Assembly (NCBI GenBank): GCA_965206595.1 | Contig: OZ242214.1 | Coordinates: forward strand, 2,176,001-2,240,000 | Direction of reading: 5' to 3' | DNA from: Candidatus Latescibacterota bacterium | GTDB lineage: Bacteria; Latescibacterota; UBA2968; UBA8231 | DNA length: 64,000 nucleotides | Shown: in pieces, positions 38,101 through 60,853 of the stretch | Numbering within the stretch: position 1 is the first letter of the stretch | Layout of the letters: every line of letters begins with the position of its first letter | Notes under the pieces: generated by a model | The model's database searches: none | What the model was told of the DNA's origin: nothing | What the model saw: only the letters and a program-made list of their open reading frames with translations | Translations under genes and position numbers: made by a program

Positions 38101-38160
38101 TCAAGCTCTGATCCGTATCCGTGATTTGGTCCTTAAATCGACTCCGACGCCGATTCTCAT
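38101..38160 (-). pseudogene. Truncated start of the ATPase's translationally coupled partner
   Basis: ATGA overlap; MRIGVGVD then unrelated sequence and stop after 19 codons. Confidence 0.45.
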
Positions 38161-40902: not shown

Positions 40903-41910
40903 ATGCCGAAACAGCGAATAGCGATTGTGGGAGCGGGGAACATGGCCCGGACTCGGGGCCGGGCGTTTCTGGAGACCGGGCGTGCGGAAATCAGCGGTGT
41001 CGCCTCCCGGCGCGCGCAGCGCGCTGAGAGGTGCGGGGCCGAGCTTGGGTGCGGCGTTTTCTTCGATGACTTCCGCCGATTGGAGGAAGCCCGGCCGGAC
41101 GCGGTCCTGATCGAGGTTCCGCACCGCGTTCAGGACGAGGTCTCTCTATGGGCGCTGGATGCCGGTTACGACCTCCTGGTGGGCGGATGTCTGGCTTCGA
41201 GTTCGGAAAACGCGCGCAAGATCGTGGAAATGGCGGCCCGGAACAGTCGCATTGTGGAGGCCGGGTTCCAGCGCCGTTACGACCCCGCCTGGGAGGAGAT
41301 CCGGCGCCTGGTGGCGGGAAGGGAACTGGGGGCGCCGGTGATGGCCGTGACCATGGCCCTGTGGAACCCGGACCCGGACGGGTGGTACTGTGACCAGGAG
41401 GCGAGCGGGGGGATGCCGCTGACCCACATGAGTTACTGCTATCTCAATGCCGTCCGCTGGATTCTCGGCAGGCCGACCACCGTGTCCGCAATGGCCAATC
41501 GGATGCGAAATACGGCTCCCGGTCACGTAGTGGAAGAGACATGCGGGGCCCTGATCGGATTTGAAAACGGGGCCTTCGCTTCGGCCACCGCCAGTTATAT
41601 CGGGCCGGAGGGCATGCCCGACCCACAGCCGCGATTTGTCTGCGCCGAGGGTGGGATCCTGCCCAATGCCGACAGCCCGCCCGGCAAGGATTCCATTACC
41701 GTTTTCCAGAGGGGCCGTTCCGAGGTGCGCGCTTTTGAGAACTCGCCTTCTCCGCTTGTCCGGCAGGCAGCCGCCTTTCTGGATGCCATGGAAAGCCGTC
41801 GCGAAGCCCGCAATCCTCCGGAAGATGCCCTGCTGGATGTCGAAATTGCCGGAGCCGTCTCGGTTTCGGCCAGGGAACACAGGACGGTCTCGCTGGCGGA
41901 AATGCGGTAG
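40903..41910 (+). CDS. Gfo/Idh/MocA oxidoreductase (copy 2)
   Basis: IAIVGAGNMA; paralog of 32212-33219. Confidence 0.88.
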   Translation: MPKQRIAIVGAGNMARTRGRAFLETGRAEISGVASRRAQRAERCGAELGCGVFFDDFRRLEEARPDAVLIEVPHRVQDEVSLWALDAGYDLLVGGCLASSSENARKIVEMAARNSRIVEAGFQRRYDPAWEEIRRLVAGRELGAPVMAVTMALWNPDPDGWYCDQEASGGMPLTHMSYCYLNAVRWILGRPTTVSAMANRMRNTAPGHVVEETCGALIGFENGAFASATASYIGPEGMPDPQPRFVCAEGGILPNADSPPGKDSITVFQRGRSEVRAFENSPSPLVRQAAAFLDAMESRREARNPPEDALLDVEIAGAVSVSAREHRTVSLAEMR

Positions 41911-42046: not shown

Positions 42047-42360
42047 CAGCTCCTTGAGGATCGTTTGCCAGTCCTTCGATCGAGCTCGCAGTACAGTTTG
42101 GTTGCCTGTCCGCCCGTATCCGCATCAATCCGGGGCCTGAGGGACCGTTGAGGGCACACCCAGCCATACACCCGGCGACGGCGACGGGTCGAGAAGGCAA
42201 GTCAGCGAACTCGAACGGCGGCTTCGGCGGGGCCCTGACAGGGGCCAACGCCGGGGCCGGGCCGGCAAACCAACCCCGGTCAAATAGCACCGGATCGAGG
42301 CCGGATCGGTCAGGGAACACCCGCGCCAGCAGGGTCGCCCACCGCAGCCGATGGCCGCAG
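42047..42360 (-). mobile_element. IS91/ISCR-like 3' remnant, copy 1 (lacks the terminal ori end)
   Basis: CGHRLRWATLLARVF / LTDPASIRCYLTGVGLPA coding plus shared downstream spacer. Confidence 0.78.
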
Positions 42361-42615
42361 GGTGGGGATTGAGGTTCAAGGTGGAACCGAACCGCTAGAC
42401 GAAGGTCACCGAGCCCCAACGCGCGTCATGGCCCATGGCCTGCGTCTCGTCGGCCTCCTCAGGCGACTTGAGATTCCCGTGGAGTTCCGCCTCAGCAGCC
42501 CAGAGGACGGTGATGTCGTCGCCGCTTATGGGTACGACAGTCTTGTTGTTCATGCCTCTATGCTGGTGGCGTTGAGGAGAATCGACGGCGAAATGCGCAA
42601 AGAACTCCTCATGGA

Positions 42616-42648
42616 GATGCGGCCGAGCTTGTACCGCCCGGCCGCATC
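42616..42648 (-). terminator. GC-rich hairpin downstream of the TonB receptor
   Basis: gatgcggccg-N13-cggccgcatc perfect 10-bp stem; no clear U tract. Confidence 0.4.
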
Positions 42649-42691
42649 CTCCACCATCTGCTTGGTCAGACTCTCTTTAGACGGTTTGCAA

Positions 42692-45367
42692 TCAAAATTC
42701 CGCAAACAGGCGCGTGTACCAGAAGGCACCGTTGTAATCCCAGGGTGTGCTCTCCGGGCGCAGATTGCCTTGGCCCGCAGTCTCCTCAGGTGCTGCTTCG
42801 GGCACCGAATCGAAAATATTCTGCGCCCCCACGCTCAGCTGATAGCGCTCGGCAAAGGCGTAGCCGACTTCGGCATCGACAATGACGCCCCCGTCAAAGG
42901 AATCGAGATCACCGCAACTGTTGTCCTGGAAGCGGCAGGCTTTCCAGGAGCTGAAGTAGCTGGGCCGCAGCATGGCATTCCAAGCGCCCATTTGGTGGCT
43001 GCCGGTGAGCACCAAGCGGTGCTCGGGGTTCATTGCCTCCAGTTCCACCTCGCGCCGGGGCGTCATCAGGGTGAAGTCGATCGGTTCGTCCAAGGGCTTA
43101 CCGAGGAATTCACTGACGGTCCGCACCTGCGAAAAGTCCTCGAGGACGTTCTGAGTCCAGTTGTAGGCGAAATCGACGTGGAACAGGGATTGGGTATCCC
43201 AAGTCCGCGTCCACGACAGCACCAAGTCAATACCTCGGGTGCGGGTGTCAAAGTCGTTGGAGAAGAACTTGACCTCCTGGAGGACGCTGACGCCTTGCAG
43301 GGCTTCCTCTTCGCGGATGATCGCGGCCATTTGATCGGTGATCTTGATATTCCCGGTCAGGGCGATGCGATCCTCGATGGCAATGTCGAAGTAGTCGAGG
43401 GTCAGATCGAAATCATCGGCGAGTTCCACCGCGGTGCCGACCGAAAATCCCACGGACTTTTCCTCGGTCAGTTCTACGCCCCCCAAGGCTGCGGCAATAG
43501 GATGAGTGGGCGGCACCTGCCCCTGCTCGGTCAGACCACCGGTGCCGGAGAAGCCGGTGGTCACGGCACGGAGATTGGCTTGGCCGGGCGACGGAGCGCG
43601 GAACCCAGTGCTGACCGTCGAGCGCAGGTTAACCCGATCGCTAGCCCGCAACAGGGCCGAGAGCTTGCCGTTGAGGGTATTGCCAAAATCGGCATAGAAA
43701 TCCTCGTAGCGCACGGCCGTGCCTAACTGGAGCTGCGGCACCACGTCCGCCTGCATGTCCAAATACAAGGCATAGTTGGGGCGATCCCACTTGCCGGCGT
43801 TATCCGGGTGCAGCCCCTGATAGCCGTTGGAACCGCTGCTGAAGCCTTGGGCGGCAAAGGGGCCCACCACGTAGGAGGCTTCGTCGCCGGCCACGGACTC
43901 GAACGTCTCTTGACGCCATTCCGCACCCCAAGCAATGCCGAGCGGCGAGGCCAAACCACCACCCACTTCCGCTGCATAGGAAAAGTCGAGGTTGGCCGCG
44001 ACTTCGGCCTGGATGTAGTCGCGCGGGCGGAACGACGTGGGCGTATCCGGCCCCAGCGAGGCGTTGATGGTATTGAAGATGAAGAATTCGATGTTGCTGC
44101 GGGCAGCACTGACGCTGGCGTCCCACTTGAGGCCACCGGAGCGGGCGCCGCGCAGGCCGGCTACCAAGCTCACATCGCGGATATCGGCTCCAAAGCGCGG
44201 CGTAAAACCACCGGGAAAGCGCTCGTTGAACAGGAAGAGATCGCCCTGGTACTCATCGACGAAAGCCTGGGCCTCGTCGAAGCTGGACTCCAGAGAGGGC
44301 ACTTCCAAATTCGCGGGATCAATGTCGTCGCTGAGATCGAGATCGACGACGGCCCGCTGATCGCCAATGCGAAATACGCTGCTGCGCGCCGAGGAAGTAC
44401 CTGGAGCACGGAAGAAAAAGCCTCCTTCGGCGCGGCGCTTGGCCCAGCCGCCAAAGCTATAGGCTTCAGCCCCATTGCCGAGGTCAACTCCGGCGTTGAA
44501 GAAGGTGTTCCACACGCCATCGAGGTCGGGGCTGCCCCAAATCTGCGCTGGCTCCTCGACGGGATAGCCCCTCGATCGCAGCGTCGCAGCATTGGCGCGT
44601 TGGCCGCTGCGGATGGTTGGATCGCTCTGGCGGTACTCGACGCTGACGTTGAAAAATCCGTCCTCGGTAAGCGGCAGGCCGACATTGGCGGCCACCTGGG
44701 ACAAGCGGCCGTCGCCCTCGAAATACTGGCCTCCCCGCGTTTCCACCAGCACCCCTTTGGAGGATTCGCGCAAGCGCAGGTTCAGCACCCCGGCGATAGC
44801 ATCGGAGCCGTACTGGGCCGCCGCGCCGTCGCGCAGCAGTTCCATTTGCGTCAAAGCAATGGCCGGGATCACGCTCAAATCCGGCCCTTGCGATCCCGTA
44901 TTGAGCGAACTGCCCAGCAGCGCGATCACGCCGGAGCGATGGCGGCGCTTGCCGTTGACAAGCACCAACAGGTTATCCGGCGGCAGACCCCGCAGCGTGG
45001 CCGGGCGCACCAAGGTTGCTTCGTCGTCAATACCGTGCCGCTGGATATTGTACGACGGGGTCAGGGTGCGCAGCATGTCATCCATATCGACCGCGGCTTG
45101 CGTGCGCAACTCGTCTGCATTCAGCACATCTACGGGCGCGGCCGAGTCCTTCCCCGAGCGCGGCGCATGGCGCGACCCCACGACGATGGCTTCTTCCATC
45201 AGATAGATGTCCTCGGAATAGACCCCCTCCTCGTCCTCTTCCTCCGTCTCAGCCTCCTCGGACCACGCGGCCTGCCCGACGACGAGCGAACCGACGAGGA
45301 CGAGACTCAGAGTCGCCATCCCCAATAGGCGCATTTGACCAGCAGAGTCCTCATATATGCTCCGCAT
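42692..45367 (-). CDS. TonB-dependent outer-membrane receptor
   Basis: Signal peptide; IVVGSR, LVLVNGKRRH, LRDGAAAQYGSDAIAGVLN; C-terminal Phe. Confidence 0.93.
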   Translation of the reverse strand: MRSIYEDSAGQMRLLGMATLSLVLVGSLVVGQAAWSEEAETEEEDEEGVYSEDIYLMEEAIVVGSRHAPRSGKDSAAPVDVLNADELRTQAAVDMDDMLRTLTPSYNIQRHGIDDEATLVRPATLRGLPPDNLLVLVNGKRRHRSGVIALLGSSLNTGSQGPDLSVIPAIALTQMELLRDGAAAQYGSDAIAGVLNLRLRESSKGVLVETRGGQYFEGDGRLSQVAANVGLPLTEDGFFNVSVEYRQSDPTIRSGQRANAATLRSRGYPVEEPAQIWGSPDLDGVWNTFFNAGVDLGNGAEAYSFGGWAKRRAEGGFFFRAPGTSSARSSVFRIGDQRAVVDLDLSDDIDPANLEVPSLESSFDEAQAFVDEYQGDLFLFNERFPGGFTPRFGADIRDVSLVAGLRGARSGGLKWDASVSAARSNIEFFIFNTINASLGPDTPTSFRPRDYIQAEVAANLDFSYAAEVGGGLASPLGIAWGAEWRQETFESVAGDEASYVVGPFAAQGFSSGSNGYQGLHPDNAGKWDRPNYALYLDMQADVVPQLQLGTAVRYEDFYADFGNTLNGKLSALLRASDRVNLRSTVSTGFRAPSPGQANLRAVTTGFSGTGGLTEQGQVPPTHPIAAALGGVELTEEKSVGFSVGTAVELADDFDLTLDYFDIAIEDRIALTGNIKITDQMAAIIREEEALQGVSVLQEVKFFSNDFDTRTRGIDLVLSWTRTWDTQSLFHVDFAYNWTQNVLEDFSQVRTVSEFLGKPLDEPIDFTLMTPRREVELEAMNPEHRLVLTGSHQMGAWNAMLRPSYFSSWKACRFQDNSCGDLDSFDGGVIVDAEVGYAFAERYQLSVGAQNIFDSVPEAAPEETAGQGNLRPESTPWDYNGAFWYTRLFAEF

Positions 45368-45453
45368 AATAAACCCTCCCGAGTTAAGTGCTTGGAGCTG
45401 TTAAACATAGAAAGCCAGGAAAACCCCTATATCATCCATCCTAATTATACAAA

Positions 45454-45730
45454 AGTATAGGTAAAATGAGGCACCTTTTTGGACTCTCGGGTCCAGGCGC
45501 TGAGCGCACCGCTAGGGTCGGGCAGCTCCCTGAGGATCGTTTGCCAGTCCTTCGACCGAGCTCGCAGTACAGTTTGGTTGCCTGTCCGCCCGTATCTGGA
45601 TCAATCCGGGGCCTGAGGGACCGTTGAGGGCACACCCAGCCGTACGCCCGGCGACGGCGACGGGTCGAGAAGGCAGGTCAGGCGGCAAACTCGAACGGCG
45701 GCTGCGAGAGGGGCCGCTCGCGCTCCGGGC
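45454..45730 (-). mobile_element. IS91/ISCR-like 3' remnant with oriIS-like end, copy 2
   Basis: Begins agtataggtaaaatgaggcacctttttggactc (minus strand ...TTTTACCTATACT); transposase portion resumes at 46307. Confidence 0.82.
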
Positions 45731-45996
45731 TATTTGAGCAAGAGTAGCCGCCGCGTCTGCACGCCGCTGGGGTGGTGCAAGCGCACGAAGTAAACCCCCG
45801 TCGCTACTGCAATGCCTCGCTGGTCGCAGGCATTCCAGGGGACTTGATAGAAGCCGGCGGCCTGTACTTGGTTCACCAAGGTATGCACCTGTTGGCCCAA
45901 GACGTTGCAAACCTCCAGTCGCACCGGGCCGGGAGTGGCCAAGCGGTAGGAGATTTGGGTGGTGCTGTTGAAGGGATTGGGGTAATTGGGCTCCAA
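45730..45996 (-). pseudogene. Orphan FlgD-Ig/T9SS-type C-terminal domain
   Basis: PNYPNPFNSTTQISY...NVLGQQV...GVYFVRL...TRRLLLLK with no upstream gene body. Confidence 0.75.
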
Positions 45997-46028
45997 GCGG
46001 CTGGTCCGAAGAGGCCATCGGCACGGCC

Positions 46029-46277
46029 TTGACCTACCTGCAAAAGCGACTGCACCAGGTCGATTTCGGCAGCCATCGCAAGGGGGGATATCCGATCGAA
46101 TCGGCGCATCGCTTCATCGGCCACGTTCGTCTGAAACGATCCGGCGCCTGGTGGTATAAGGAAAACAGCAACGCCATCCTCGCTCTGCGCTGCGCCCTGT
46201 ACAATGGAACGCTCGACCGGATCTTTCAGCAGTACCGCGAAAACCCTGAACAATCACCAACCGTAACAATCAGCTAA
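46029..46277 (+). mobile_element. ISKra4-like transposase C-terminal fragment
   Basis: GYPI[GSG missing]ESAHR...RLKRSGAWW...AILALR. Confidence 0.65.
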
Positions 46278-46306
46278 GACAAGACACCCACTCGAAGTCG
46301 CAGAAC

Positions 46307-46615
46307 GAAATAGCATCGGATCGAGGCCGGATCGGTCAGGGCGGCGAGGATCCTCAGACGCCCGCCACAGGCCGCGCATTCGCTGAGGTCGGAGGAAAAC
46401 ACCCGCGCCAGCAGGGTCGCCCAGCGCAGCCGATGGCCGCAGGACGCAGCGCTCGCCGAGCCGTCCGCCGCCGCCGGCTCGGCAACCGGCTTGGCCGGCA
46501 CGATGCGGTCGCGGGCACGGGGCGCCAGGACCCCGTGATAGCGTAGGAGATGGAGCCGGGGCGGGGGGACCAGATCCGCGTAGCCGCATGCAGCGAAAAG
46601 CCGCGCGAAGCAAAG
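46307..46615 (-). mobile_element. IS91-family (Y2) transposase fragments
   Basis: GFSLHAA; LVPPPRLHLLRYHGVLAP; CAACGGRLRILAAL. Confidence 0.8.
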
Positions 46616-46795
46616 CACAAGGGCGCCGTACGCACCCCGGTGGCGCGGGCGCGGATCTGGTAGATCGCATCATCGGTCTCGCCGACGATTTCTGCAAAGG
46701 AATCAGTACTCATGTTACCTCGTTATTTTTTCGTTCAGTCCTACCAGCCCTCTTCGCGGACTTGGATCTGTTTTAGCAGGGGACGCCACCAAGCT

Positions 46796-48218
46796 GGCAT
46801 TGTCCCGATCTTAGTTGAAACAGCACAGGCTCCCCTCGCTACCTTGGTACGGGAAGTTTTTTTCCGGAAAACATCAGGTAACAGAAAGGAGCCTGCCATG
46901 AGCAAGCTATCAGGACCCCGGAAGCAGGTCAAACGCAGCCTGGAAATCGGCCCCGTGAATGCGGAGGCCGCCGCCCTTACCGGCGATCTGGATACGCGCA
47001 TCGAGGGGATCCAATGCCTGATTCCTTTGGGTCTGCAAGCCGTCGCCGAGGAACTGCAACGGGCGGTCGAGGAGTTGGCCGGGCCGCGCTATCAGCGCAA
47101 GGGGGCCGAGCAGCCGGTGCGCCGCTGGGGATCTCAGTCCGGATCGGTGTATCTGGGCGATCAGAAACTGAGGGTCGAAGTGCCGCGGGTGCGCAATGTG
47201 GCCAGCCGGACCGAGGTGCCGCTGGCGGCCTACCAGGCCCTGCAGAGGCCCCGGAACCAGGACGAGGGTCTGTTGCTGCGCGTGTTGAAAGGGATCGCCA
47301 CGCGCGACTACGAGGCCTGCGCCGAGGCCGTCCCGGCCGCCTTCGGCCGGTCCGGTTCCTCGGTGTCGCGCCGCTACGTGAAAGGCACGGCGCGAAAGCT
47401 GGCCGAATTCCAGGAGCGATCCCTGGAAGGATACGATCTGGTGGCGCTGTTTCTCGACGGCAAGAGCTTCGCCGACGAAGAAATCCTCATCGCGCTGGGG
47501 GTCACCCTGGACGGACACAAGATTCCGCTGGGCTTCGTGCAGGCGGCCACCGAGAACGAGCGCGTCTGCCGGCGCTTCCTGTCCGATCTGGTCGAACGGG
47601 GCTTGCAGTATGAAGCCGGACTGCTGGTCGTCCTCGACGGCGGCAAGGGACTGTACAAGGCGGTGCGGTCGGTGCTGAAAGGGCATGCCTGCGTGCAGCG
47701 CTGCCAGTATCACAAGCGCCAGAACGTCGTCTCGTATCTGCCCAAGAGCGAGCAGGCCCGGATCCGTTACAAAATGGAAGCGGCCTACGGGCAAGCGACG
47801 TACGAGGAGGCCAAGGCTGCCCTGGAGGCGCTCAAACCGGGCTTGGAGCTGACGAACCAGTCCGCCCTGCGCAGCCTCGAGGAAGGCCTGGAAGAGACCC
47901 TCACCCTGCACCGCTTGGGAGTGATGCCGATGTTGAAGAATTCCTTCCGTACCACCAACTGCATCGAGAACGTCAACGGTCTCCTGGAGCAGTTGACGCA
48001 TAACGTGCGGCGCTGGAGCAACTCATCGCAGCGTCACCGCTGGGTAGCCACGGCGCTGTTGGACATCGAACCGCGTCTGCGCCGGGTCAAGGGCTACCGT
48101 CACTTACCGACGATGCGGCACGCCCTGCAAGGCGAGCTCGGTATCAAACAGCTCGCTATGACGGGCTGATCTATTCAACCGAGCCTGTGCTTTGTTTCAA
48201 CTGAAAATGGGACTTGCC
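46796..48218 (+). mobile_element. IS256-family element, 9-bp target duplication caccaagct
   Basis: IRs ggcattgtcccgatcttagttgaaac / gtttcaactgaaaatgggacttgcc; TSD at 46787-46795 and 48219-48227. Confidence 0.92.
46898..48169 (+). CDS. IS256-family DDE transposase
   Basis: LFLDG, VLDGGKGL, QRCQYHK, RTTNCIE. Confidence 0.92.
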   Translation: MSKLSGPRKQVKRSLEIGPVNAEAAALTGDLDTRIEGIQCLIPLGLQAVAEELQRAVEELAGPRYQRKGAEQPVRRWGSQSGSVYLGDQKLRVEVPRVRNVASRTEVPLAAYQALQRPRNQDEGLLLRVLKGIATRDYEACAEAVPAAFGRSGSSVSRRYVKGTARKLAEFQERSLEGYDLVALFLDGKSFADEEILIALGVTLDGHKIPLGFVQAATENERVCRRFLSDLVERGLQYEAGLLVVLDGGKGLYKAVRSVLKGHACVQRCQYHKRQNVVSYLPKSEQARIRYKMEAAYGQATYEEAKAALEALKPGLELTNQSALRSLEEGLEETLTLHRLGVMPMLKNSFRTTNCIENVNGLLEQLTHNVRRWSNSSQRHRWVATALLDIEPRLRRVKGYRHLPTMRHALQGELGIKQLAMTG

Positions 48219-48767
48219 CACCAAGCTTCGTTGTCGCGGTACCAGTGGACGGTATCGCGGAAGCTCTGGGCAAAATCAACTTGCGGTTCCCAACCCAATT
48301 GGATGCGGATTTTGCTTGAATCAAGTAGGTAGCGCCGGTCGTGGCCAGGCCGGTCATCGACATAGGTTTTGTGCCCGGCGTCCATCCCCAAGGCGTCGAG
48401 GATCAGGTCGGCGATGGTTTCGACGTCTTTTTCAATGCCGCTGCCAACGTTGTACGTATGGCCGATCTCGCCTTTTTTCAGCACTAGGTCGATGGCCCGG
48501 CAGTGGTCATCGACGTGGAGCCACTCGCGGCGGTTCTGGCTCGAGAATGTACAACGGCATCTTCTGGCCGGTGAGCAGGCGGACGACGAAGAAGGGGATG
48601 ACTTTTTCCGGGAATTGATAGGGGCCGAAGTTGTTGGAGCAATTCGACAGCGTCACGGGCAAGCCAAAGGTGTGGCCATAAGCGCGCACGGCCAAGTCGG
48701 CCGCAGCCTTGGCCGCGTTGTACGGAGTGCGCGGCCGATAGGGCGATTCCTCGGTGAAGGACTCATC

Positions 48768-51700
48768 GTAACCGTTCAGTTCCCTGGCAGATTGGGGCCG
48801 GGGGGCGGAATGGTTGCGGGCTGATATTAACGAATGGGGGAGTGGGTTGGAGGCAGCAGCGAGGGCGCCGGCTGCTGAGACACGGCCGCGTCACAGGCCA
48901 TCCTGAGATAGTCGAGGACGTTGCGCTGCTGCTGGCGCAGGGTATCGCGCACCGTGAGCAGGCGCTCTACAAAACGGCTGCCTTCGGCACTGTGGGTACC
49001 GAAGCTGGTGTGACGCCACAACACGCCATGGCGAAGGGCTCGTTCGGCTTCGTTGTTGGTCGGCTCGACGCCGGGCCGGCGTGCGAAGGTCCACAGGGCC
49101 GGCCCGAGGTCGAGGAGATTGGCGCAGGTGGCCGCCGTCTTGGCGTCGGCGAACCGCTGCCCATAGCACAAATGAAAACGAAAGCGCAGACACAAATCGT
49201 CGATATAGTCCTGGAAGCGGGCGCGGGACAGGGTGCCGTCGCGGACTTGATGCCACCAGGTAAACAGCTGCTCGCTGCGGTCCAACAGGTGGTGACCGAC
49301 GCGCCCGGCCTCTCCGCCCCGGGCCACGAACTCCTCGAAGGCGCGCCGCAGATGCGCCCAGCACACTTGCCGGCGTCGAAGCGGCAGATGCCCATAGGCC
49401 GAATAGCGATCGCAGCCGACCACCGCCGTGTTATCCGCACCCAGCATCTCATCGACCCCGTCGCGTCCCCGGCTGGGGCGAATGGAGAATACGGTGACGC
49501 CCTCGGTCACCGCGGTCCACAACCAGGCCTTGGCGCGGGCCCTGGCGCCAGCCGGTCTCGTCGACGTTGACGAGGCCCTGTCGGCGAACGAAGGCGCGCG
49601 CCTCCTCGACCGCACCCGCCAGGGCCGCGGCCACTTCCTGTTCCAGCCGGCTGACCGTACCCAGCGACACCTCGAGGCCGAAGGCGTCGGACAACAGCGC
49701 CCGGATGTTGCGCTTGCTCAGCCGGTAGGCCCCGGCCAGCAGGCCGACCCAGGCCTGCACGCTAGGACCGAAGGTGTGCCGCGATACGCCCTCGGGCCAA
49801 CCGGCTGCGGTCAGGCGGTCGCAGTGAGCGCAGCGCAGGGTGTGCAGCTGATACTCGATGACCTCGGCCCGCAGCGGCGGGAGGACGACTTCCTGGTGAC
49901 GCTGCGGATGAGGATCGTCTCCCGTCAACGGGTGCCCGCATCCGTGGCACTGGCTGGGCTTGACCGGGATCCGTTCGTCCACCTGCTCGACCGATACCCA
50001 CGAGCGGCCGTGTCCTTCGTGCCCGGGCTGTCCGCCCGGCGAGCGCCCCGAGGACCGGCGTCGGGAGGTGTCGGTGCGCGGCGAGGAGGAAGCGCCCGAT
50101 TGCGACGAGGCGGCCCGGGCACCGCGGCGGGATCGCCCCTTGCGGCGGGCCAATTCCTGCTCCAGCTCGGCGATGCGCGCCGTCTGTTGTTCCACGATTT
50201 GCTCGAGCTGGACAATGCGCTGGCGCAGGTCGCTTTCGGAAGGGTCTATCCGGGTTTTTCAACGCCGAAACGTAAGTACGGAAAGTACCTGAGCCCTTGC
50301 TGTTCATCTGAGTACATGACCAGGCCATAGGTCGTTCCCTATGCTTGGTGTATCCCCATCAAGCACTCCCCAGGAAAGGGAAGGGAAGGCGACCTATGAC
50401 CGCTATGAAGTTCGTCTCCAAGCTGTTCAAGTTCAAGGGGTTTGGCGCTGTCGACGTGTGCTTCGAAGGACGCGGGGAGGAAGCGGCCGTCGTGGTTGCG
50501 GTGCAGCCCCACAAGAATGGGTGCCGGTGTCCCCAGTGTGGGCGCCGGGGCAAGATCGTACGGATCATGGAGCCCCGCCGCTGGCGCGACGTCCGCGTTT
50601 GCGGCCGTACCGTCTGGTTGTACCACCGCCCTCGAGAGATCCGCTGTCCGACCCACGGCCGGCACGTCGAGGAGGTGCCCTGGGCAGCGCCCTCGGCCCG
50701 GGTCAGCTACCGCTTCGAATACCTGCTGCTGACCTACTGCCAGTGGATGCCGCAGGTCACCGCCGCGCGCTTGCTGGGCCTGGCTCCCTCGACCCTGTCC
50801 GACCAGGTGCACCGGCTCATCGAGCGCCGGCGTACAGGCCATCGCCTCCGCGGGCTGACGACCCTCGGCATCGACGAGATCTCCTACGCCAAGGGCCATA
50901 AATACGCCACCCTGGTCTACGACCTGGAGCGCTCCTGTGTCGTCTGGATCGGCAAGGGCAAGGCCCGCGAAACGATCGATACGTTCTTCCGGGACCATCT
51001 CAGCGCCTTCCGGAAGGCCCGTATCCGCTGGGCCTGCTGCGATATGAGCGAGACCTTCATCGGCGCCATCCGCCAGCACTGCCCCAACGCCCAGCTCGTC
51101 CTGGACCGATTCCACGTCGTCAAGGCCCTCAACGAAGCCGTCGACGAGGTGCGCAAGGAACAGTGGCGGCAAGCCTGCGGCGAGGACCGCAAGCTGCTCA
51201 AGGGCCTGCGCTGGGTGCTGCTGCATCACTCCGCCCGGCGCTCGCCAAAGGACCGGCGCACGCTCCAAACCCTGGAGAAGGCCAACCGCCGCATCTACCG
51301 CGCCTGGCGCCTGAAGGACGAGTTCGAGCACTTCTGGCGCTACAAGGCGCGCTGAGCCGCCGAACGCTTCCTCAAGAAGTGGACGACGGCGGCCCTGCGC
51401 AGCCGCCTGGAGCCCCTGCGCAGGTTCGTCAACACGGTGCGCAAGCATGCGGCCGGCATCACGGCCTTCGTCGACACGCACCTGACCAACGCCGCCGCCG
51501 AAGGGCTCAATCGAATCATCCGCATGGTCAAGAATCGAGCCAGTGGATTTAAATCTCTGGATGCCTTTGCCGACCTCATTTACCTGTGCGTCGGAGACCT
51601 CGATATCCCTGCGCAGATTCCGGCCCGATTCCGTACCGTGTGAATCACTCAATATCTCTCTCTGTACATGCTATAAAATGTCCTTTGAAAAACCCGGATA

Positions 51701-51862
51701 TAGCCTTTCGGAAATCGCACTCTCAGGAGGTCTTTTCATGGGGGTCGCCGTATCCGGAGAATCTGCAACACACAACCAATCCCGAAAATACCGACGAACC
51801 CGAAAACTCGCTGGGTATTTCTTTAAATGCGCAAACTACTGCAGGGGGGACTGAACGGTTAC
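48768..51862 (-). mobile_element. IS66-family element, 8-bp target duplication gactcatc; transposase split by ISL3 and frameshifted near 49540
   Basis: IRs gtaaccgttcagt; TSD 48760-48767 and 51863-51870; GGQPGHEG, DETGW, QVCWAHLRR, PTNNEAERALR; ATG 51739. Confidence 0.92.
50242..51705 (+). mobile_element. ISL3-family element nested in IS66, 8-bp target duplication tttcggaa; transposase about 50397-51643 with internal TGA
   Basis: 21-bp IRs gggtctatccgggtttttcaa / ggctatatccgggtttttcaa; TSD 50234-50241 and 51706-51713; GIDE, CDMS, DRFHVV, TNAAAEGLN. Confidence 0.92.
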
Positions 51863-52427
51863 GACTCATCTGCATCGAGGGCCAGATCGCCGTACACTTC
51901 GCAGGTGGAAATGTGGTGGAAGCGCGGCACTTGGACATCGGCCGCGGCCTGCAACAGCTTTTGCGTCCCCACTACATTGGTCTGGAAAAAGGCCGAGGGA
52001 TTGACAATGGCTAAGCTGTTGTGCGATTCCGCGGCAAAGTTGACCACGTAGTCGGGGCGGTGGACCTCGAAGAGATGACGGGTTAGATCGGCATTCTGAA
52101 TATCGCCGCGGACAAAGGTGTAACGGTCGCCGTAGCTTGCTTCCACGTCCTGCAGGCTGGCCAAGTTGCCGGCGTAGGTGAGCAGGTCGTAGTTGACAAT
52201 GCAGTCGTCGGGATAGGTCGATAGCCAGTAGCGAATGAAATTGGAGCCGATGAAGCCGGCGCCGCCGGTGACGAACAGGGTAGTCATGGATGCTCTTGGT
52301 TAGGGATTAGGTGCGTGGTCCGTTATTTAATCAATTGTCTAACATTTGGGCGACTCGCAGCCGGGATTTCAGTAAATACCCTTATTACTACCCTTATTCA
52401 AGCATTACTACCCTTTTGATGATACGT

Positions 52428-52848
52428 TCATGGCGAGCGCCGTTTGAACTGCCAGCGTTTTATATCCTCAAATCGGTCAAAGTCCTTATCAAATGTCGCC
52501 ACATGGTCGCCGGAGGCCGTAGCTAGGGCAGCCAAGTAGCAATCCAGAAAGTCGTATTTTGTCGTCGCAAAGCGATGCAAAGCATCGAGCATTTCATCTT
52601 GCTTCATACAGCGTACACCGGCACTAATGATGACCTTACTCAGCCCTTCTGCAATCTGTTCGCGCTCGGTTTCGTAGAAGGAATTGAGCACCCCACACCG
52701 CTTCGGCAACAGCCACTTCGGTTAATATCAGCACACATTTTCCATCGCAAGCGTCCGAAAATAGTGCCCGAGCGGCCGGGGAGTGCTGAGCATCGTCGCC
52801 GCGCAGAAAACGAAGGAGGACGTTGGCGTCTAAAAGATACTTGATCAT
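52428..52848 (-). pseudogene. vapC: PIN-domain VapC-like toxin, frameshifted in a G run near 52692
   Basis: LDANVLLRFL...AEAVW/VLNSFY...DFLDCYL...ATFDKDF. Confidence 0.75.
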
Positions 52849-53105
52849 TCGTATCTGGCCGCTCTTGCTTTGCGTGCTGCTCCTCGTTCCTCGGATTTAG
52901 ACGCAGAGGGCTTGTCATCTGCAAGACAGCCATATAGATCCTTGAGCGTTTCGGGCTGGGGTTTCACCAAAACGGCACCGTCAGTCAACTCATAGATGAG
53001 CTGCTGCCGAGGCTTGAGGTGGAGTGCCTTGCGGACTTCGGCCGGGATGGTGGTTTGCCATTTATCGGTTAGAGTTGACTTGATCACGGGTCCATTCCTT
53101 TTCAT
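52845..53105 (-). CDS. AbrB/MazE-type antitoxin
   Basis: STLTDKWQTTIPAEVRKALHL; ATGA-coupled to the PIN gene. Confidence 0.82.
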   Translation of the reverse strand: MKRNGPVIKSTLTDKWQTTIPAEVRKALHLKPRQQLIYELTDGAVLVKPQPETLKDLYGCLADDKPSASKSEERGAARKARAARYE

Positions 53106-53170
53106 TGTTTTTATAAATCCATTGTTTTGAATATAACAATGCAAATCCAATCCGCATGGCGTCAACAAGC

Positions 53171-53440
53171 TCAACGATATACTTCACGCCTGTGGCCAAT
53201 CTTCACAATGAGGATGAGAAAGGCATCGTCCTTGATGTGGCTGATTACGCGATAAGCACCCACGCGGTATTTCCAGAATTCGCCTAACTTGGAACCCTTG
53301 AGGGCTTCGCCCATGCTCCGTGGGTCGTCCAGCGTGGCAACACGGTCATGCAAGAATCTTAGAATCCGCCTTGCCGCTTGTCGGTCTATTCTCCTCAATT
53401 CGCGCTCTGCATCCTTGGCAAGCTCAATCTGCCAAGCCAT
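53171..53440 (-). CDS. relE: RelE/StbE-family toxin
   Basis: DDPRSMGEALKG...WKYRVGAYRVI...KIGHRREVYR. Confidence 0.9.
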   Translation of the reverse strand: MAWQIELAKDAERELRRIDRQAARRILRFLHDRVATLDDPRSMGEALKGSKLGEFWKYRVGAYRVISHIKDDAFLILIVKIGHRREVYR

Positions 53441-53654
53441 GCTCTTTCATGACTTTCTCAAGCGGCACGGTCTGAGATTTCCCCTCGTGAATATCCTTCA
53501 GTCGTTGTTCGGCAAGATGCAAGTCTTCGAGGTCGTCCAGATACTCCCGGATAGCCTCAATCATATATTCTGTTTCGCTGCGTCCCGTGCGGGCAGCCAG
53601 TTTTTGCAGCCGTTCAAAGACTGTATCGGGCAACTGAAAAGCTACTCGGCTCAT
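53424..53654 (-). CDS. Ribbon-helix-helix RelB-like antitoxin
   Basis: RLQKLAARTGRS...EAIREYLDDLEDLHLAEQRL; overlaps relE. Confidence 0.85.
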   Translation of the reverse strand: MSRVAFQLPDTVFERLQKLAARTGRSETEYMIEAIREYLDDLEDLHLAEQRLKDIHEGKSQTVPLEKVMKEHGLAD

Positions 53655-53713
53655 GTCGCTTCTCCCATGGGTTATCTACGAATCGTCTCGTATCAACTAC
53701 TCCCCTGATTCTT

Positions 53714-54567
53714 GGACCTATCTCAAAATTGAAATTGTTTAAGTAAAATCAAAATGGATGCAAGTTGGACGAAGCCAAGAAAATTCTCCGGATACAATTC
53801 CCAGCGAGTGATCACTCGACGCTGCCATTGAAGCCAAGCAAAGAATCTCTCAACCATCCAACGCCGCACATATCGCCGCAATCGCCGTCCATCCTGAGTC
53901 TTTTGCTTGCTCCGATTCTGGCGATGCGGGACGATCATCTCGATCCCGTCTTTCTTAAGCTCTTCATCCAACGAATCGCTGTCGTACGCTTTATCGCCGA
54001 TCAAGTTGTCAGGTTGGTCTTCGATCAAGTAAAAGTCAAAGGTCGACTGAACCAGCGTCACTTCATGATGGTTCGCTGCATGCGTGCTCACCGACAAGGG
54101 AAGCCCATTGCCGTCCACGATCCCCATGACCCGCACCCCCTTACCTCGCCTGGTGTGGCCGATATCGGCACCTCCACCCTTGGCCGCCGAGAACATGCCG
54201 TCGATGAAAGCCTCCGATTCGTCCAGGCCCCCTTGCTCGTGAAGGGTCTGGGCCAGGTCCATGAGAACTTCGCGCACCACCCCTTGACGACACCCGTTTT
54301 GAAAACGGCGATGCACGGTTTTGTAGTTCGGATAGCACGGCGGCAACATAGGCCATCGAGCCCCGGTGTTTAGAATCCAAAGAACGGCTGCAAAAACATC
54401 ACGCGTGCAAACCGGTTTGCGACCCGGATGGCTCTTGGGACGATTTTCTTCAGGAAAGTGATGGCGGATTCGTTGCCATTGCATGTCGGTCAGATTGACC
54501 ATACACCAATGGTACATCACTGTCATTTCGGAAACAAGTTTAAGTTTGCCTATTTTGAGATAGGTTC
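53714..54567 (-). mobile_element. IS5-family element; transposase about 54502-53723
   Basis: IRs ggacctatctcaaaat / gaacctatctcaaaat; LTDMQW, IGDKAYDS, RWMVERFFAW. Confidence 0.88.
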
Positions 54568-54615
54568 TTGCAAAAACGCCGACGAGCACCCTAGTCTCGG
54601 CTCCTGCAAGCTAAA

Positions 54616-55010
54616 AGTATAGGTAAAATGAGGCACCTTTTTGGACTCTTCGGTCAAGGCGCTGAGCGCACAGCGAGGATCGTTGCCAGTCCTTCGACCG
54701 AGCTCGCAGTACAGTTTGGTTGCCTGTCCGCCCGTATCCGGATCAATCCGGGGCCTGAGGGACCGTTGAGGGCACACCCAGCCGTACGCCCGGCGCCGGC
54801 CACGGGTCGAGAAGGCAGATCAGGCGGCGAACTCGAACGGCGGCTGCGGCGGGGCCCTGGCAGGGGCCAACGCCGGGGGCCGCGCCGGCAAACCGACCCC
54901 GGTCAAATAGCATCGGATCGAGGCCGGATCGGTCAGGGCGGTGAGGATCCTCAGGCGCCCGCCACAGGCCGCGCATTCGCTGAGGTCGGAGGAAAACACC
55001 CGCGCCAGCC
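54616..55010 (-). mobile_element. IS91/ISCR-like 3' remnant with oriIS-like end, copy 3
   Basis: Same agtataggtaaaatgaggcacc end; LARVFSSDLSECAACGG...FEFAA. Confidence 0.85.
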
Positions 55011-55110
55011 ACACGGAGGTCGCCATCGCCGCTTGACCTCACAGATCTTGGTACTCCCGATGCGCAGGCGATGCACGGGATCCCGGAACACGGCGTTCCC
55101 GCAGGGTCAT

Positions 55111-56610
55111 TCAGACCGTGATCCGATCGGCCGTCCACGTGCCGGCATTCGCCAGGATGAAGTCGGGCTCCACGTACTGCTCGCGAAGAAGGTGCTCGTA
55201 TAGTCGGCCTTCGCTCACGCGATCGACCGGCGAGGTGTCGACGATACGGGTTGAAAGCGCTTCATCGAGCGCTTCGACAGTTCCGCTGCCCTCGTCGAAT
55301 TGCGCCTTCTTGCGCCACACAAGGTCCGCGGGCAGCAGGTCCTCGCAGGCCTTGCGCAGGATCCACTTCTCGGTCGTTTCGCTGGTTTGCTCGTCGACCA
55401 CGTTCATCTTCAACGATGCAGGGATCGACTGCGCAAAGTCGATGAGATCGCGATCGAGGAACGGCGTGCGCGCCTCCAGCCCCTGGGCCATGGTGATCCG
55501 GTCCACGCGCTGCAGATTGATGTTGTGCATGGCGCCGAGCGAGCGGGTGATCTCGTCCGCCAGGGCCCGCGGCCTGCGGGCATAGGCGTGGTGGTAGGTG
55601 TAGCCAGCGAAAAGCTCGTCCGCCCCTTCGCCCGTGAGCACCGCCTTGACATGACGGCGCGCCAAGGTGGTCGCGAAATGCGTCGGCATGGCGCTGCGCA
55701 CGAGATCGACGTCGGCGCTCTCGAGATGGTAGATCACGTGCGGCAGGGCTTCAGCGAGGTCGGCGGCGGTGAAGACGAGCTCGTGGTGGTCCGAGTCGAT
55801 ATGCGCGGCTACGGCGCGGGCGGCGGCGAGGTCGGGACTTTGCGCCGTGCCGACCGCGAAGGTCTTGAGCGGACGGTCGATGGCCCGCGCCGCCAGGGCT
55901 GCGATGACTGAGGAATCCAACCCGCCGGACAGGAAGGCACCGACCTCGACGTCGGCCACCATCCACTTGCGCACCGCCGCTTCGAGGACGAGCCGCAGCT
56001 CGCGCCAGATCGGTTCCGGATTCTCACCAGGCGCCAGCACGGCGGCGCCGTGCGGCATGCGGTACCACTCGCGAAAGCCATCGACGCTGTCGAACATGCC
56101 GCCGGGGTCGATGGTTTCGACCTCGTCCAGGCCAAGACCGTCGAACGCCTTCAACTCGGAAGCAAAGGCGAGGCCGTGGTCGATGCGCGCCATGAAGAGC
56201 GGCTTGATGCCGAGCGGGTCGCGCGCCGCAATGATCCGCTCCGGCGTGACCAGAACGAAGGCAAACATCCCGTCCAGCTTCGCGATCCACCGCAGTTCGT
56301 CGGACTGGAACAGATGCAGAATGGTCTCGCTGTCGCTTGACGTATGGAAGACGCTCTCGCCAAGGATCGCCCGCAAATCCGCGTGGTTGTAGATCTCTCC
56401 GTTGGCGACGAGCACGTTCTCGGCACTGTGGATTGGCTGGGCGCCGTCTTCGGGACCGATTATCGACAGCCGACAGTGGGCCATGACGGCCGGCACGTTC
56501 GGCGCATCGATCACACGCAGGTCGTCGGGCCCGCGGTGGGCGAGCTTCTCGATCATCCGACGCGCGAGCGAAGGATCATCGAGATTCCAAAGGCAGACAA
56601 AGCCACACAT
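55111..56610 (-). CDS. Asparagine synthase-like glutamine amidotransferase (AsnB family)
   Basis: N-terminal MCG, HRGPD, NGEIYNH, RDPLGIKPL, LSGGLDSS, GEGADELF. Confidence 0.9.
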   Translation of the reverse strand: MCGFVCLWNLDDPSLARRMIEKLAHRGPDDLRVIDAPNVPAVMAHCRLSIIGPEDGAQPIHSAENVLVANGEIYNHADLRAILGESVFHTSSDSETILHLFQSDELRWIAKLDGMFAFVLVTPERIIAARDPLGIKPLFMARIDHGLAFASELKAFDGLGLDEVETIDPGGMFDSVDGFREWYRMPHGAAVLAPGENPEPIWRELRLVLEAAVRKWMVADVEVGAFLSGGLDSSVIAALAARAIDRPLKTFAVGTAQSPDLAAARAVAAHIDSDHHELVFTAADLAEALPHVIYHLESADVDLVRSAMPTHFATTLARRHVKAVLTGEGADELFAGYTYHHAYARRPRALADEITRSLGAMHNINLQRVDRITMAQGLEARTPFLDRDLIDFAQSIPASLKMNVVDEQTSETTEKWILRKACEDLLPADLVWRKKAQFDEGSGTVEALDEALSTRIVDTSPVDRVSEGRLYEHLLREQYVEPDFILANAGTWTADRITV

Positions 56611-56789
56611 TTCATTCCTCATCGGTTGCGTCGGAGTGCCTCGTCTCCGCCGACGGCGCACTTGTCCCCCGTGGACGGCATCGGGCGTAGCCGCACCCTG
56701 GATGGGGCCGGCATCCGACAGGGCGGGCTCGGGATTCACAGGTTCGGCGGCATCCGCCGCTCGGGATCGGTATCCGACGTCTGCCGGTG

Positions 56790-57659
56790 TCACCCTGCCA
56801 GCAGCGTGTCCAAGGAGACTTGCCGGGTATCGCCGGCTGGCCGCGACACGAAAAACTCCGCGTGTAGATGCCCCTCGGCTTCCTTGCCGGCTGGATCGAT
56901 GCCCCGCTCGCGAAGCCGCTGCAGCACCTGCTCGCGTTCGCGATCGCTGACGAAACGCCGCTGCTTGAATGTCTTGTCCTCCAGCTTCTCGGTGACATAT
57001 CCCCAATCGGACAGCGTTGCCTCAATGGGTTCGAACTCCCAGAGCCGAAGCACGAAGTTGGCCATCCAGGGCAGATCGCCCCTGGTCACGGTCGGCAGCA
57101 ACCGCTCGAAGGTCTTTTCCGTGACGTAGCCGATGCAGCCCGTCGAGGTCATCAGATCGATGTCAGCCAGCTCCGGCATTGCCGAATCGAGGAGCGGGCC
57201 AGCCTCCAGATTCGCGACCACTCCCTCGTCAATCAACCCGGTCTCCTCGGCAAAAGCGACCGCGCGTTCCGCCCGATCGAGGCCGATGACTTCGAAGCCG
57301 TGCGATTCTTCCCGATCGGCGAAGAATTGTCGGTCATGCTCCATGACCTCCTCCGGGCTCGCATCCTGCAGCCGGTCCTGGCCCCAGTGATCGTAGAGCT
57401 GGGGCATCGTCATGTCGTGCTTGAGAAGGGCTCCGTTCACGCCATACGAGCAGCCGAGATCCAGCACGCGTATGGACTTCTCACGCAAACGCTGCAGACG
57501 GGAAATCAGTTTGAGGAATAGGGGCTTGCTGGCGCTGGGGGTCGCGTAGTCGAGCTTGCGCAGCTCGGAATAGTAGGCCCTGGGGTCCGGCTGATTGTAG
57601 ATGTGGTCCAAGTTGGCTTTGGCACCATGGTGCTTATTTTCAGAATCGTCTACCGGCAT
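56790..57659 (-). CDS. Class I SAM-dependent methyltransferase-like protein
   Basis: VLDLGCSYGVN, IGLD, TGCIGYV; RBS aaggag. Confidence 0.8.
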   Translation of the reverse strand: MPVDDSENKHHGAKANLDHIYNQPDPRAYYSELRKLDYATPSASKPLFLKLISRLQRLREKSIRVLDLGCSYGVNGALLKHDMTMPQLYDHWGQDRLQDASPEEVMEHDRQFFADREESHGFEVIGLDRAERAVAFAEETGLIDEGVVANLEAGPLLDSAMPELADIDLMTSTGCIGYVTEKTFERLLPTVTRGDLPWMANFVLRLWEFEPIEATLSDWGYVTEKLEDKTFKQRRFVSDREREQVLQRLRERGIDPAGKEAEGHLHAEFFVSRPAGDTRQVSLDTLLAG

Positions 57660-57890
57660 CGTTTTCTCCTTTGCTGGTGGTCGGAGCGGGTGCAGACAGC
57701 CGGTGCCCGAGGAGGGACGCCTTCAGGACTAGCGGCATATCTGACCCACTATACCGATGCACCGTAACACACGGCCTCGACCGGATATCGGGAATCTTCG
57801 CAGTCGTCCCCGGTACCGGAAGGGCACCTGGAAGCGGCTCGGCATCCATTCTCTGATCGTTTCCGTCAGAAGACCGTGACGAGAGTATAG

Positions 57891-58470
57891 AGTATAGGTA
57901 AAATGAGGCACCTTTTTTGGACTCTCGGGTCAAGGCGCTGAGCGCACCGCTAGGGTCAGGCAGCTCCCTGAGGATCGTTTGCCAGTCCTTCGGCCGAGCT
58001 CGCAGTACAGTTTGGTTGCCTGTAGGCCCGTATCCGGGCGACGGCGACGGGTCGAGAAGGCAGGTCAGGCGGCGAACTCGAACAGCGGCTCAGGCGGGGC
58101 CCTCTGCGGGGGCATCGCCGGCAGCCCTACCCCCTCCAGATAGGTCCGGATCGAGGCCGGACCGGTCAGGGCGGCGAGGATTCTCAGGCGACCGCCACAG
58201 GCCGCGCATTCGCTGAGGTCGGAGGAAAACACCCGCGCCAGCAGGGTCGCCCAGCGCAGTCGATGGCCGCAGGACGCAGCGCTCGCCGAGCCGTCCGCCG
58301 CCGCCGGCTCGGCAACCGGCAGGGCCGGCACGATGCGGTCGCGGGCCCGGGCCCGGGGCGCCAGGACCCCGTGGTAGCGCAGGAGATGAAACCGGGGCGG
58401 GGGGACCAGAGCCGCCCGCTTCTCCAGCAGGTCCATCGGAGACAGCAGGAGATGGCGGGTCCCATCCGAG
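57891..58470 (-). mobile_element. IS91/ISCR-like 3' remnant with oriIS-like end, copy 4 (longest contiguous)
   Basis: Same end; SDGTRHLLLSPMDLLEK.AALVPPPRFHLLRYHGVLAP...FEFAA. Confidence 0.85.
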
Positions 58471-58680
58471 CCTGACCACCAGTTCGGCCAGCCGATCATA
58501 GTCGAGGTCGAACAGAGCAAAGAAGCGTTGGATGCGACGATAGTTTGATTTTCTATCGGCGTTTCCATTCAAGCCGTTGGCGATGCGAACCAGGTTTACC
58601 TTGGTCACCTGGATTAAGGCTAACACCCAGGCGGCGAGGAACTTGACCCGGGCTTTGTGCCATGGCAGGTGCCATTGCAT
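58471..58680 (-). mobile_element. IS4-family transposase N-terminal fragment
   Basis: HLPWHKARVKFL...VNL...SNYRRIQRFF. Confidence 0.65.
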
Positions 58681-58851
58681 CGCCGTGTATAAATCTGTAG
58701 TTTGAGGTGATATAGACCTGCTCTTGGTGATCGGGGAAACATGGACTTCGGCACGCCAAACTTAATCTCTTGTCAATTCAGGGGGGGGGTCTTTCTCGTT
58801 TTGTCGCGTAGCATGGGCAAAGACTGAAATTGTCGCGAGCTGCGCTATCAA

Positions 58852-60711: not shown

Positions 60712-60853
60712 TTGACAACAACCTCCGGTAGTCGTCGATCATTCCTTCCTTCCCCCCTGGCGGTTCCCCGATTCAAGGCACGCACTTCGGAGTTGGCAGG
60801 GTACGGTAAACTGATCGAGTGCTTCCCGCTGCTACCCCGCGAACCTGCCAAGG

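Follow-up and report, generated by a model that had tools for sequence, protein, structure and literature searches.

ISCR elements are known almost only from the resistance plasmids and integrons of clinical bacteria, and the mechanism by which they pick up genes is still argued. Eukaryotic Helitrons work by a rolling-circle HUH logic, capturing genes through read-through and leaving the target unduplicated. Here we describe four repeats of IS91/ISCR type, modules W1 to W4, between positions 42,047 and 58,470 of a 64,000-nucleotide stretch (the window; contig OZ242214.1, positions 2,176,001 to 2,240,000) of a Candidatus Latescibacterota genome, referred to as G000. The window lies within a single 7.05-Mb contig; the congeners are G001 and G002. 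The same ISCR architecture is thus present on the chromosome of an uncultivated environmental bacterium, and three related species permit a before-and-after comparison. On balance, we lean toward reading the modules as relics of ISCR-type one-ended transposition, combined with recombination between modules and later erosion. The elements are dead in G000 and the finding there is an ordinary one; its value is that of a natural data set, not of a new system, in which unequal end loss, in-place truncation, and the gain or loss of blocks as units bear on whether capture reflects transposition, recombination, or decay.

For IS801, right-end fragments are reported in 26% of transposition events, and miniature right-end derivatives of 229, 360, and 679 nucleotides (nt) are attributed to one-ended transposition (Bardaji et al. 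2011, PMC3189936). Read-through is given for 1 to 14% of IS91 and IS1294 events (PMC13181058), and in the ISCR2-tet(X) units of resistance plasmids, complete or partial copies in direct orientation surround the cargo (PMC7722449).

The element in the window resembles ISCR1 and ISCR2 in its HUH/Y2 transposase (38 to 39% identical), in having ISCR_clade_Ia as its best model, in lacking inverted repeats, and in its ori terminus, ...AAAAGGTG...TTTA..CCTATAC, about 170 to 230 nt past the stop codon; as in ISCR elements, a precise and constant ori boundary adjoins variable DNA. It differs in that the arrays are chromosomal, the cargo consists of defense and accessory genes rather than resistance genes, the model score stays below cutoff, and the copies are old, with no working transposase left. 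As described for ISCR2-tet(X)-ISCR2 (PMC7722449), direct repeats bracket unrelated genes, both at the four window modules and in 9 co-oriented clusters; unlike that unit, no intact transposase is present and no unit is duplicated within G000. One block differs between species. The modules share with the IS801 miniatures an intact right (ori) end, an absent left end, and variable length. The miniatures, however, are described as starting at a tetranucleotide like the wild-type left end (PMC3189936), a motif that the truncation points here do not carry; and at least two truncations here arose by in-place deletion. Read-through of the IS91/IS1294 kind would explain blocks that run in one direction from an ori end, and a T-rich target beside oriIS is a further likeness, a conserved T at target position 2 being reported for those elements (PMC13181058). 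No helicase domain is found here and the features are those of bacterial ISCR elements; any likeness to Helitrons would be mechanistic only.

Modules in the window

Modules were mapped onto a 1,764-bp full-length reference from a congener (L032:891-2654), and piece coordinates were taken on the G000 copy C4099. The pieces are as follows.

42047-42452, minus strand: W1, a heavily deleted ISCR-like relic in three pieces across reference positions 569-1697, without the ori terminus
45455-45720, minus strand: W2a, ori end and spacer, with the oriIS terminus exact at 45455
45721-46316, unstranded: foreign 596 bp dividing W2, comprising the next two features
45730-46113, minus strand: T9SS sorting-domain fragment inside W2
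46006-46281, plus strand: ISKra4-like 3' fragment inside W2
46317-46644, minus strand: W2b, transposase C-terminal remnant with an internal deletion; 5' truncation point at 46644
54617-55009, minus strand: W3, ori end, spacer, and last part of the transposase gene (reference 1372-1764)
57892-58469, minus strand: W4, the longest copy in the window, with the Y2_Tnp C terminus (reference 1145-1764)

The observation of four co-oriented IS91/ISCR-type end repeats is real. A preliminary description of this DNA had reported four modules that all point the same way, each pairing a shared spacer with the 3' end of a Y2 transposase, and both mapping and sequence reading confirmed it: the transposase remnant is on the minus strand in 4 of 4 modules, and W2a and W2b together correspond to reference positions 950-1764. 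W2, W3, and W4 also end, as described, at a common last base of ...GGTGCCTCATTTTACCTATAC, with different flanks. Two details had to be corrected. The copies are not confined to the 3' end of the element, since W1, besides its internal deletions, retains about 90 bp from the 5' half; and the "FlgD tail" that had been placed behind W2 is located inside it.

Local tandem duplication was considered as the origin of the four copies and rejected. The copies are not confined to this locus, and each is as near to distant copies (up to 93 to 95% identity) as to its neighbors, so local duplication does not explain them.

In the flank of W4 (window positions 57878-57898), TCTATAC is repeated straight after ...CCTATAC, and at G000 3882706-3882754 two ori-like termini stand in tandem, 28 nt apart. 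Such tandem termini may be a trace of repeated insertion at one ori-adjacent target.

Identity of the element

The full element of 1,764 bp is made up of a gene for an HUH/Y2 transposase of about 480 amino acids (aa), a spacer of about 175 to 190 nt, and a terminus reading ...CCTATAC. In the window, the 167-aa frame of W4 matches Pfam Y2_Tnp (E = 1e-6; 29.3 bits, with a cutoff of 20.9) and NCBIfam ISCR_clade_Ia (E = 1.5e-22, below the curated cutoff of 925 bits). The three shorter module frames gave no Pfam match, and they are identified by their DNA similarity to W4 and to other copies. For a 509-aa frame from a congener, the best NCBIfam model was again ISCR_clade_Ia (E = 2.2e-97), at 326.7 bits against the cutoff of 925; with the transpos_IS91 equivalog it scored 94.5 bits and did not reach the cutoff of 125, a difference from IS91 itself. 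The element is related to both models but falls outside them by their own definition of membership. Compared with transposases from plasmid records, the congener frame is 38.0% identical to that of ISCR1 and 38.6 to 38.9% identical to that of ISVsa3 (ISCR2), over 82 to 84% of the length. The zinc-binding CxxC motifs, HxH, and a C-terminal CxxC are all present in the full frame of a congener, and a Zn_Tnp_IS91 match was found in a genomic 5' fragment (L026:1465-1923).

The terminus of W4 is located 173 nt past its stop codon. For comparison, ori ends were read from one ISCR1 record and one ISVsa3 record, each of which contains a single CCTATAC, 230 and 233 nt past the stop codon, respectively, and finishes ...TTCCTATAC. 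The sequence ahead of CCTATAC is ...AAAAAGGTGGTTTATACTT in the ISCR1 record and ...GAAAAGGGCGTTTATTCTT in the ISVsa3 record, and the terminal sequences are ...GGTGGTTTATACTTCCTATAC and ...GGGCGTTTATTCTTCCTATAC, in the same order. These record ends bear out the oriIS consensus that the preliminary description had given. On this evidence, the fixed end is an authentic ISCR/IS91-type oriIS. Terminal inverted repeats were sought between the ends of the 1,764-bp reference and not found: 8 of 25 positions match in inverted register, and the local alignment scored 8, where shuffled sequences averaged 6.1 and reached at most 11.

Searching with the 21-nt terminus (4 substitutions or fewer) gave 23 places in the genome, a few of them from a sub-family with another spacer and one apparently spurious. 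The next base is T at 19 of these, A at 3, and C at 1, with TT at 13 places; G+C makes up 63.7% of the genome. A short, T-rich target adjoining oriIS is therefore present, although its motif differs from the CTTG/GTTC of IS91 and IS1294. No repeat was seen in the flanks of the copies, among which A1421 is the only G000 copy with both ends. Judged by these comparisons, the assignment of the repeats to an ISCR-type (IS91-family) element is secure, in line with the original proposal.

Unequal loss of the two ends

A BLAST search of G000 with the full-length reference identified 51 loci; the match extends to the ori terminus at 23 of them, to the left end at 4, and to both at 1. Sorted with a 12-nt tolerance, 1 locus has both ends, 3 have the left end only, 22 have the right (ori) end only, and 25 have neither, the ori end being kept about seven times oftener than the other. 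Coverage depth climbs from 3 to 4 in the 5' part to 27 to 30 toward the ori end and is highest near position 1550. Five DDE insertion sequence (IS) families of the same genome, treated in the same way, are mostly full length and symmetric, with left-only/right-only counts of 2/1, 2/3, 1/0, 2/4, and 3/2. The genome-wide pattern predicted from the window, copies with one fixed end and one variable end, is borne out by these counts. It is chiefly this asymmetry that speaks against decay as a sufficient cause: neither the 22 ori-only against 3 left-only loci nor a depth gradient of about tenfold would be expected from random deletion, and the DDE families show no such asymmetry.

Co-orientation also extends beyond the window. 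Every copy is on a single strand in 9 of 9 clusters of at least three loci (for example, 12 of 12 copies at 4.01 to 4.11 Mb). Replication direction was considered as a cause of co-orientation, but the cumulative GC skew passes through several maxima and minima and does not allow replichores to be assigned; such irregular skew points to many rearrangements or assembly problems.

The copies are old, 72 to 95% alike, compared with 97 to 100% within the DDE IS families. Of the 20 PF04986 matches in G000, not one spans the domain within a single frame; the two longest G000 copies contain deletions and frameshifts. Y2_Tnp matches at an E value of 1e-10 or lower were obtained in 10 of 31 genomes (G000 and 30 relatives), with frames spanning the whole domain in G001, G016, and G008. 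One G001 copy that was inspected has a frameshift about 50 codons before its end, whereas in another, L043, a frame of 502 aa appears intact and includes the zinc-binding, HxH, and C-terminal CxxC motifs. An intact donor transposase, which had been suggested as something to look for, is thus missing from G000; because the L043 frame appears intact, a donor may exist within the genus.

History of the arrays in congeners

A GFO/IDH/MocA oxidoreductase gene stands at the ori-side edge of the window array (positions 40903 to 41910, plus strand, by Pfam), and its orthologues in G001 and G002 (89 to 93% identity) also adjoin IS91-like arrays. In both congeners the array anchored at this gene ends at a flank that, in G000, adjoins a copy at 1.42 Mb. 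Because the anchor and the 1.42-Mb flank are shared, the array must be older than the three species and was split by rearrangement in G000. Its contents differ among the three. A second array is anchored next to a shared MazE/PIN pair. Module 3 of G001 with 3.1 kb of cargo corresponds to G000 6015092-6010992 (97.5% identity), and module 4 of G001 with its ori-side flank corresponds to G000 6016516-6014515 (95.8%); module, cargo, and flank are circularly permuted between the two genomes. A circle recombining at the module, a local hop, or a partly deleted tandem duplication would each give this permutation.

The array at 6.835 to 6.847 Mb contains three modules and two cargo blocks within 11.8 kb. 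The flanks of this block are 95 to 97% identical to G001 and 91 to 95% identical to G002, where they lie 182 bp and 56 bp apart, respectively, and the junction carries no trace of IS91. Overlapping, directly oriented parts of the element delimit the block: one end falls within the transposase remnant (about reference position 1064) and the other 56 nt short of the ori terminus (reference position 1708). This structure fits recombination at a relic already resident there or a one-ended event that was damaged. Two expectations raised earlier for this DNA can be partly answered here. Empty sites in relatives were found for the three-module block, in G001 and G002, but not for any single module; and the stacking of blocks is seen insofar as one block, made up of several modules and their cargo, is either there in full or missing, depending on the species.

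Two copies of a 1,156-bp repeat, which covers part of a gene for a PALP enzyme, enclose a 7-kb island at G000 1346045-1354185 (L019:6045-14185) that carries a tyrosine integrase gene along with a sigma-70-like gene and has an ISCR-like ori module at its edge. G002 lacks the island, and its flanks are separated there by 119 bp. Two G000 stretches, 6313687-6315398 and 1342259-1343453, are 99.5% and 100% identical to G001, compared with 88 to 95% for syntenic DNA; the near identity suggests recent exchange between the species.

DNA between and around the modules

The features that separate and flank the window modules are as follows.

42692-45367, minus strand: complete TonB-dependent receptor gene, 891 aa, between W1 and the W2 ori end (Pfam Plug and TonB_dep_Rec_b-barrel)
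46786-48217, plus strand: IS256-like element, a recent insertion (Pfam Transposase_mut; copies of 97 to 99% identity elsewhere in the genome)
48218-48759, minus strand: 3' two-thirds of an rfbB-like dehydratase gene (tblastn with a genomic paralogue, aa 175-354)
48760-51862, unstranded: IS66-like element, a recent insertion (Pfam; multi-copy matches)
50235-51706: ISL3-like element nested in the IS66-like element, a recent insertion (Pfam; multi-copy matches)
51864-52287, minus strand: 5' third of the rfbB-like gene (Pfam GDP_Man_Dehyd/Epimerase, N-terminal part only; paralogue aa 40-171)
52845-53174, minus strand: PrlF/MazE-like antitoxin (Pfam)
53171-53440, minus strand: ParE toxin (Pfam)
53709-54564, minus strand: IS5-like element, recent, 50 bp from the W3 ori end (Pfam DUF4096 and DDE_Tnp_1; about 25 copies)
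55111-57006, minus strand: asparagine-synthase-like (asnB-like) gene (Pfam Asn_synthase and GATase_7)
56790-57659, minus strand: 289-aa open reading frame (ORF) without a Pfam or NCBIfam match
58470-58761, minus strand: N-terminal fragment of an IS4-family transposase gene (NCBIfam transpos_IS4_2, profile 1-39), joined to the truncation point of W4
58848-60713, plus strand: IS1380-like element, one of 33 loci (Pfam DDE_Tnp_1_4; about 99.9% identical copies)

The genome as a whole is very rich in IS, with 33 loci of the IS1380-like element (about 99.9% identical) and 26 of the IS5-like element.

The interval between W2 and W3 had been described as stacked metabolic and surface cargo. Other, younger IS make up about 5.4 of its roughly 8 kb, and without these insertions the interval consists of a once-intact rfbB-like gene and a ParE/antitoxin pair; the description is not supported for this interval. 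The "methyltransferase" reported between W3 and W4 is the ORF at 56790-57659 without a family match. Short contigs from four public runs (X15, X18, X19, and X1) were compared with the window, and they contain empty-site joints for the IS256-like element (46785>48218, in 4 of 4 runs), the IS66-like element (48759>51863), the ISL3-like element (50234>51707), and the IS5-like element (53708>54565). None of the joints listed for these runs removes a module or a module-bounded unit; the contigs are short, and none spans a module.

The same cargo was expected behind modules at other loci, and none was found in G000 besides copies of unrelated IS. For the asnB-like gene, neither of the two congeners gave a close match, and for the asnB block as a whole only weak, partial matches were obtained in relatives. 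In the other G000 arrays, the DNA between modules measures 2 to 8 kb and is mostly unique sequence. A Pfam scan of 111 ORFs from these arrays identified type I restriction-modification genes, three GmrSD, AbiEii, Abi_C, caspase-EAD1, and a D12 methylase, together with toxin-antitoxin pairs, an integrase, and assorted enzymes, with gene strands mixed. The other arrays are typical defense and plasticity islands.

The TonB receptor has a match in another genus (G012, 88% identity) that is closer than its best congener match (G001, 83%), and matches of 80 to 81% occur in two other families of the class.

Explanations of the arrays

As we read the arrays, a working transposase would formerly have been present and would have begun transposition at oriIS. 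An early stop would give 5'-truncated copies, and run-on into neighboring DNA would give a module plus cargo; the literature documents such behavior for IS91, IS1294, and IS801 (PMC3189936, PMC13181058, PMC13393415). New units would then have landed beside existing ori ends, or entered by homologous recombination between modules, either of which would produce arrays running in the same direction; in-place deletion and insertion of younger IS would afterwards have eroded them. Past blockwise build-up of this sort is plausible. In G000 the system is a fossil, in which the modules are at most recombination repeats, and what remains is a known kind of mobile-DNA debris in fast-changing accessory and defense islands.

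Several results weigh against one-ended transposition with capture. Left junctions of the copies start ACTG, GAGT, TGCC, GCTG, TCGG, GCCG, CGAA, GGAC, CCTT, CGAT, and TACG, whereas the wild-type left end starts ATG(G/T)GAGGGAATC; a sequence rule for truncation was tried and dropped, the junctions having neither a common tetranucleotide nor any likeness to the left end, unlike the IS801 miniatures. At one orthologous locus, G000 has a 1,366-bp copy with both ends, whereas in G002 the same left flank, which has lost 31 bp, leads into an ori stub of 48 bp; at a second, copy length runs from 58 bp (G000) through about 190 bp (G001) to about 1 kb (G002), with the ori-side junction always retained. 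The shorter forms at both loci are best read as in-place deletions. At one junction (B4076), hsdM and the transposase gene are both cut, the outcome expected of a plain deletion. It is mainly these in-place deletions and arbitrary junctions that argue for plain decay as the source of much of the truncation. The 11.8-kb block replaced 55 to 180 bp of target, and with its imprecise ends it was rejected as a clean transposition. No module-plus-cargo unit is duplicated within G000. The TonB receptor, proposed as traveling cargo, was rejected in that role: at 5 of 5 loci in relatives, its homologues (80 to 88% nucleotide identity) have no module within 1.5 kb, and the homology breaks off at the stop codon. 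A foreign base composition of the cargo was also looked for, and the TonB and asnB blocks, at 62 to 65% G+C, are close to the genome mean.

Many of the same observations would follow if full-length elements had inserted independently into an insertion-tolerant island and been truncated later, the DNA between them being resident and never captured; co-orientation would then reflect strand bias of single-strand-specific insertion. We regard this account as possible but rather unlikely. It agrees with the in-place truncation at two orthologous loci, with the arbitrary truncation points, with the B4076 junction, and with the lack of shared cargo and the ordinary G+C content, and Bardaji et al. came to a like conclusion for most IS801 fragments of Pseudomonas syringae genomes (PMC3189936). 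Between 3 and 4 of the 22 truncated ends abut other repeats, which is also in its favor, although truncation through insertion of other IS, considered as a general cause, fits only those ends. Besides the end asymmetry and the symmetric DDE families, the three-module block speaks against this account, since the whole of it was either gained or lost where relatives have a clean empty site.

A more speculative extension of one-ended transposition, which we put forward tentatively, is that ori modules act as landing pads. Fixed sites, such as those beside the GFO/IDH/MocA gene and the MazE/PIN pair in this genus, might become integron-like exchange platforms for defense and accessory genes, where module-cargo blocks arrive and depart as units; entry and exit might proceed by rolling-circle read-through or by recombination of a circle at a resident module. 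Ori-anchored truncation might then be a rolling-circle signature, the bacterial counterpart of 5' truncation in LINEs and Helitrons.

The preliminary description had raised the possibility of non-autonomous ori modules that are mobilized in trans and stack cargo. The precise retention of ori termini at 23 loci, the apparently intact transposase of a congener, and the G000/G001 segments of 99.5 to 100% identity, which suggest recent exchange, speak for such present-day activity. We nevertheless consider it very improbable in G000, because the genome has no intact transposase (0 of 20 PF04986 matches complete), the modules are old (72 to 95% alike, against 98 to 100% in active IS families), no cargo is shared, and truncation is arbitrary; moreover, among the joints listed for the four runs and their short contigs, those that remove a whole element all concern younger IS. 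Domestication, in which ori modules would serve the host as outward promoters of downstream genes or as sites for another recombinase, is scarcely credible: with recent IS removed, all window cargo genes are co-directional with the modules, the W2 ori end is 87 bp upstream of the TonB-receptor start codon, and POUT promoters are described in the ISCR1 oriIS end (PMC13393415), but gene strands are mixed in other arrays, the modules are diverged and variably deleted, and the window ORFs that were scanned gave no match to a Pfam recombinase domain.

Genes at the array edges

An AAA_21 (AbiEii-type) ATPase gene is located just upstream of the window array, at window positions 38157-39368, and is syntenic in G001 at 88% identity. 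Genes or gene fragments of the GFO/IDH/MocA family stand directly beside at least five module ends: the anchor gene of the window, G000 4076553-4077737, 6015116-6016198, 6298104-6298382, and 6307487-6307708. One of these matches starts exactly at an ori terminus (profile position 29). With 99 matches to the family in the genome, GFO/IDH/MocA sequences look enriched at module ends.

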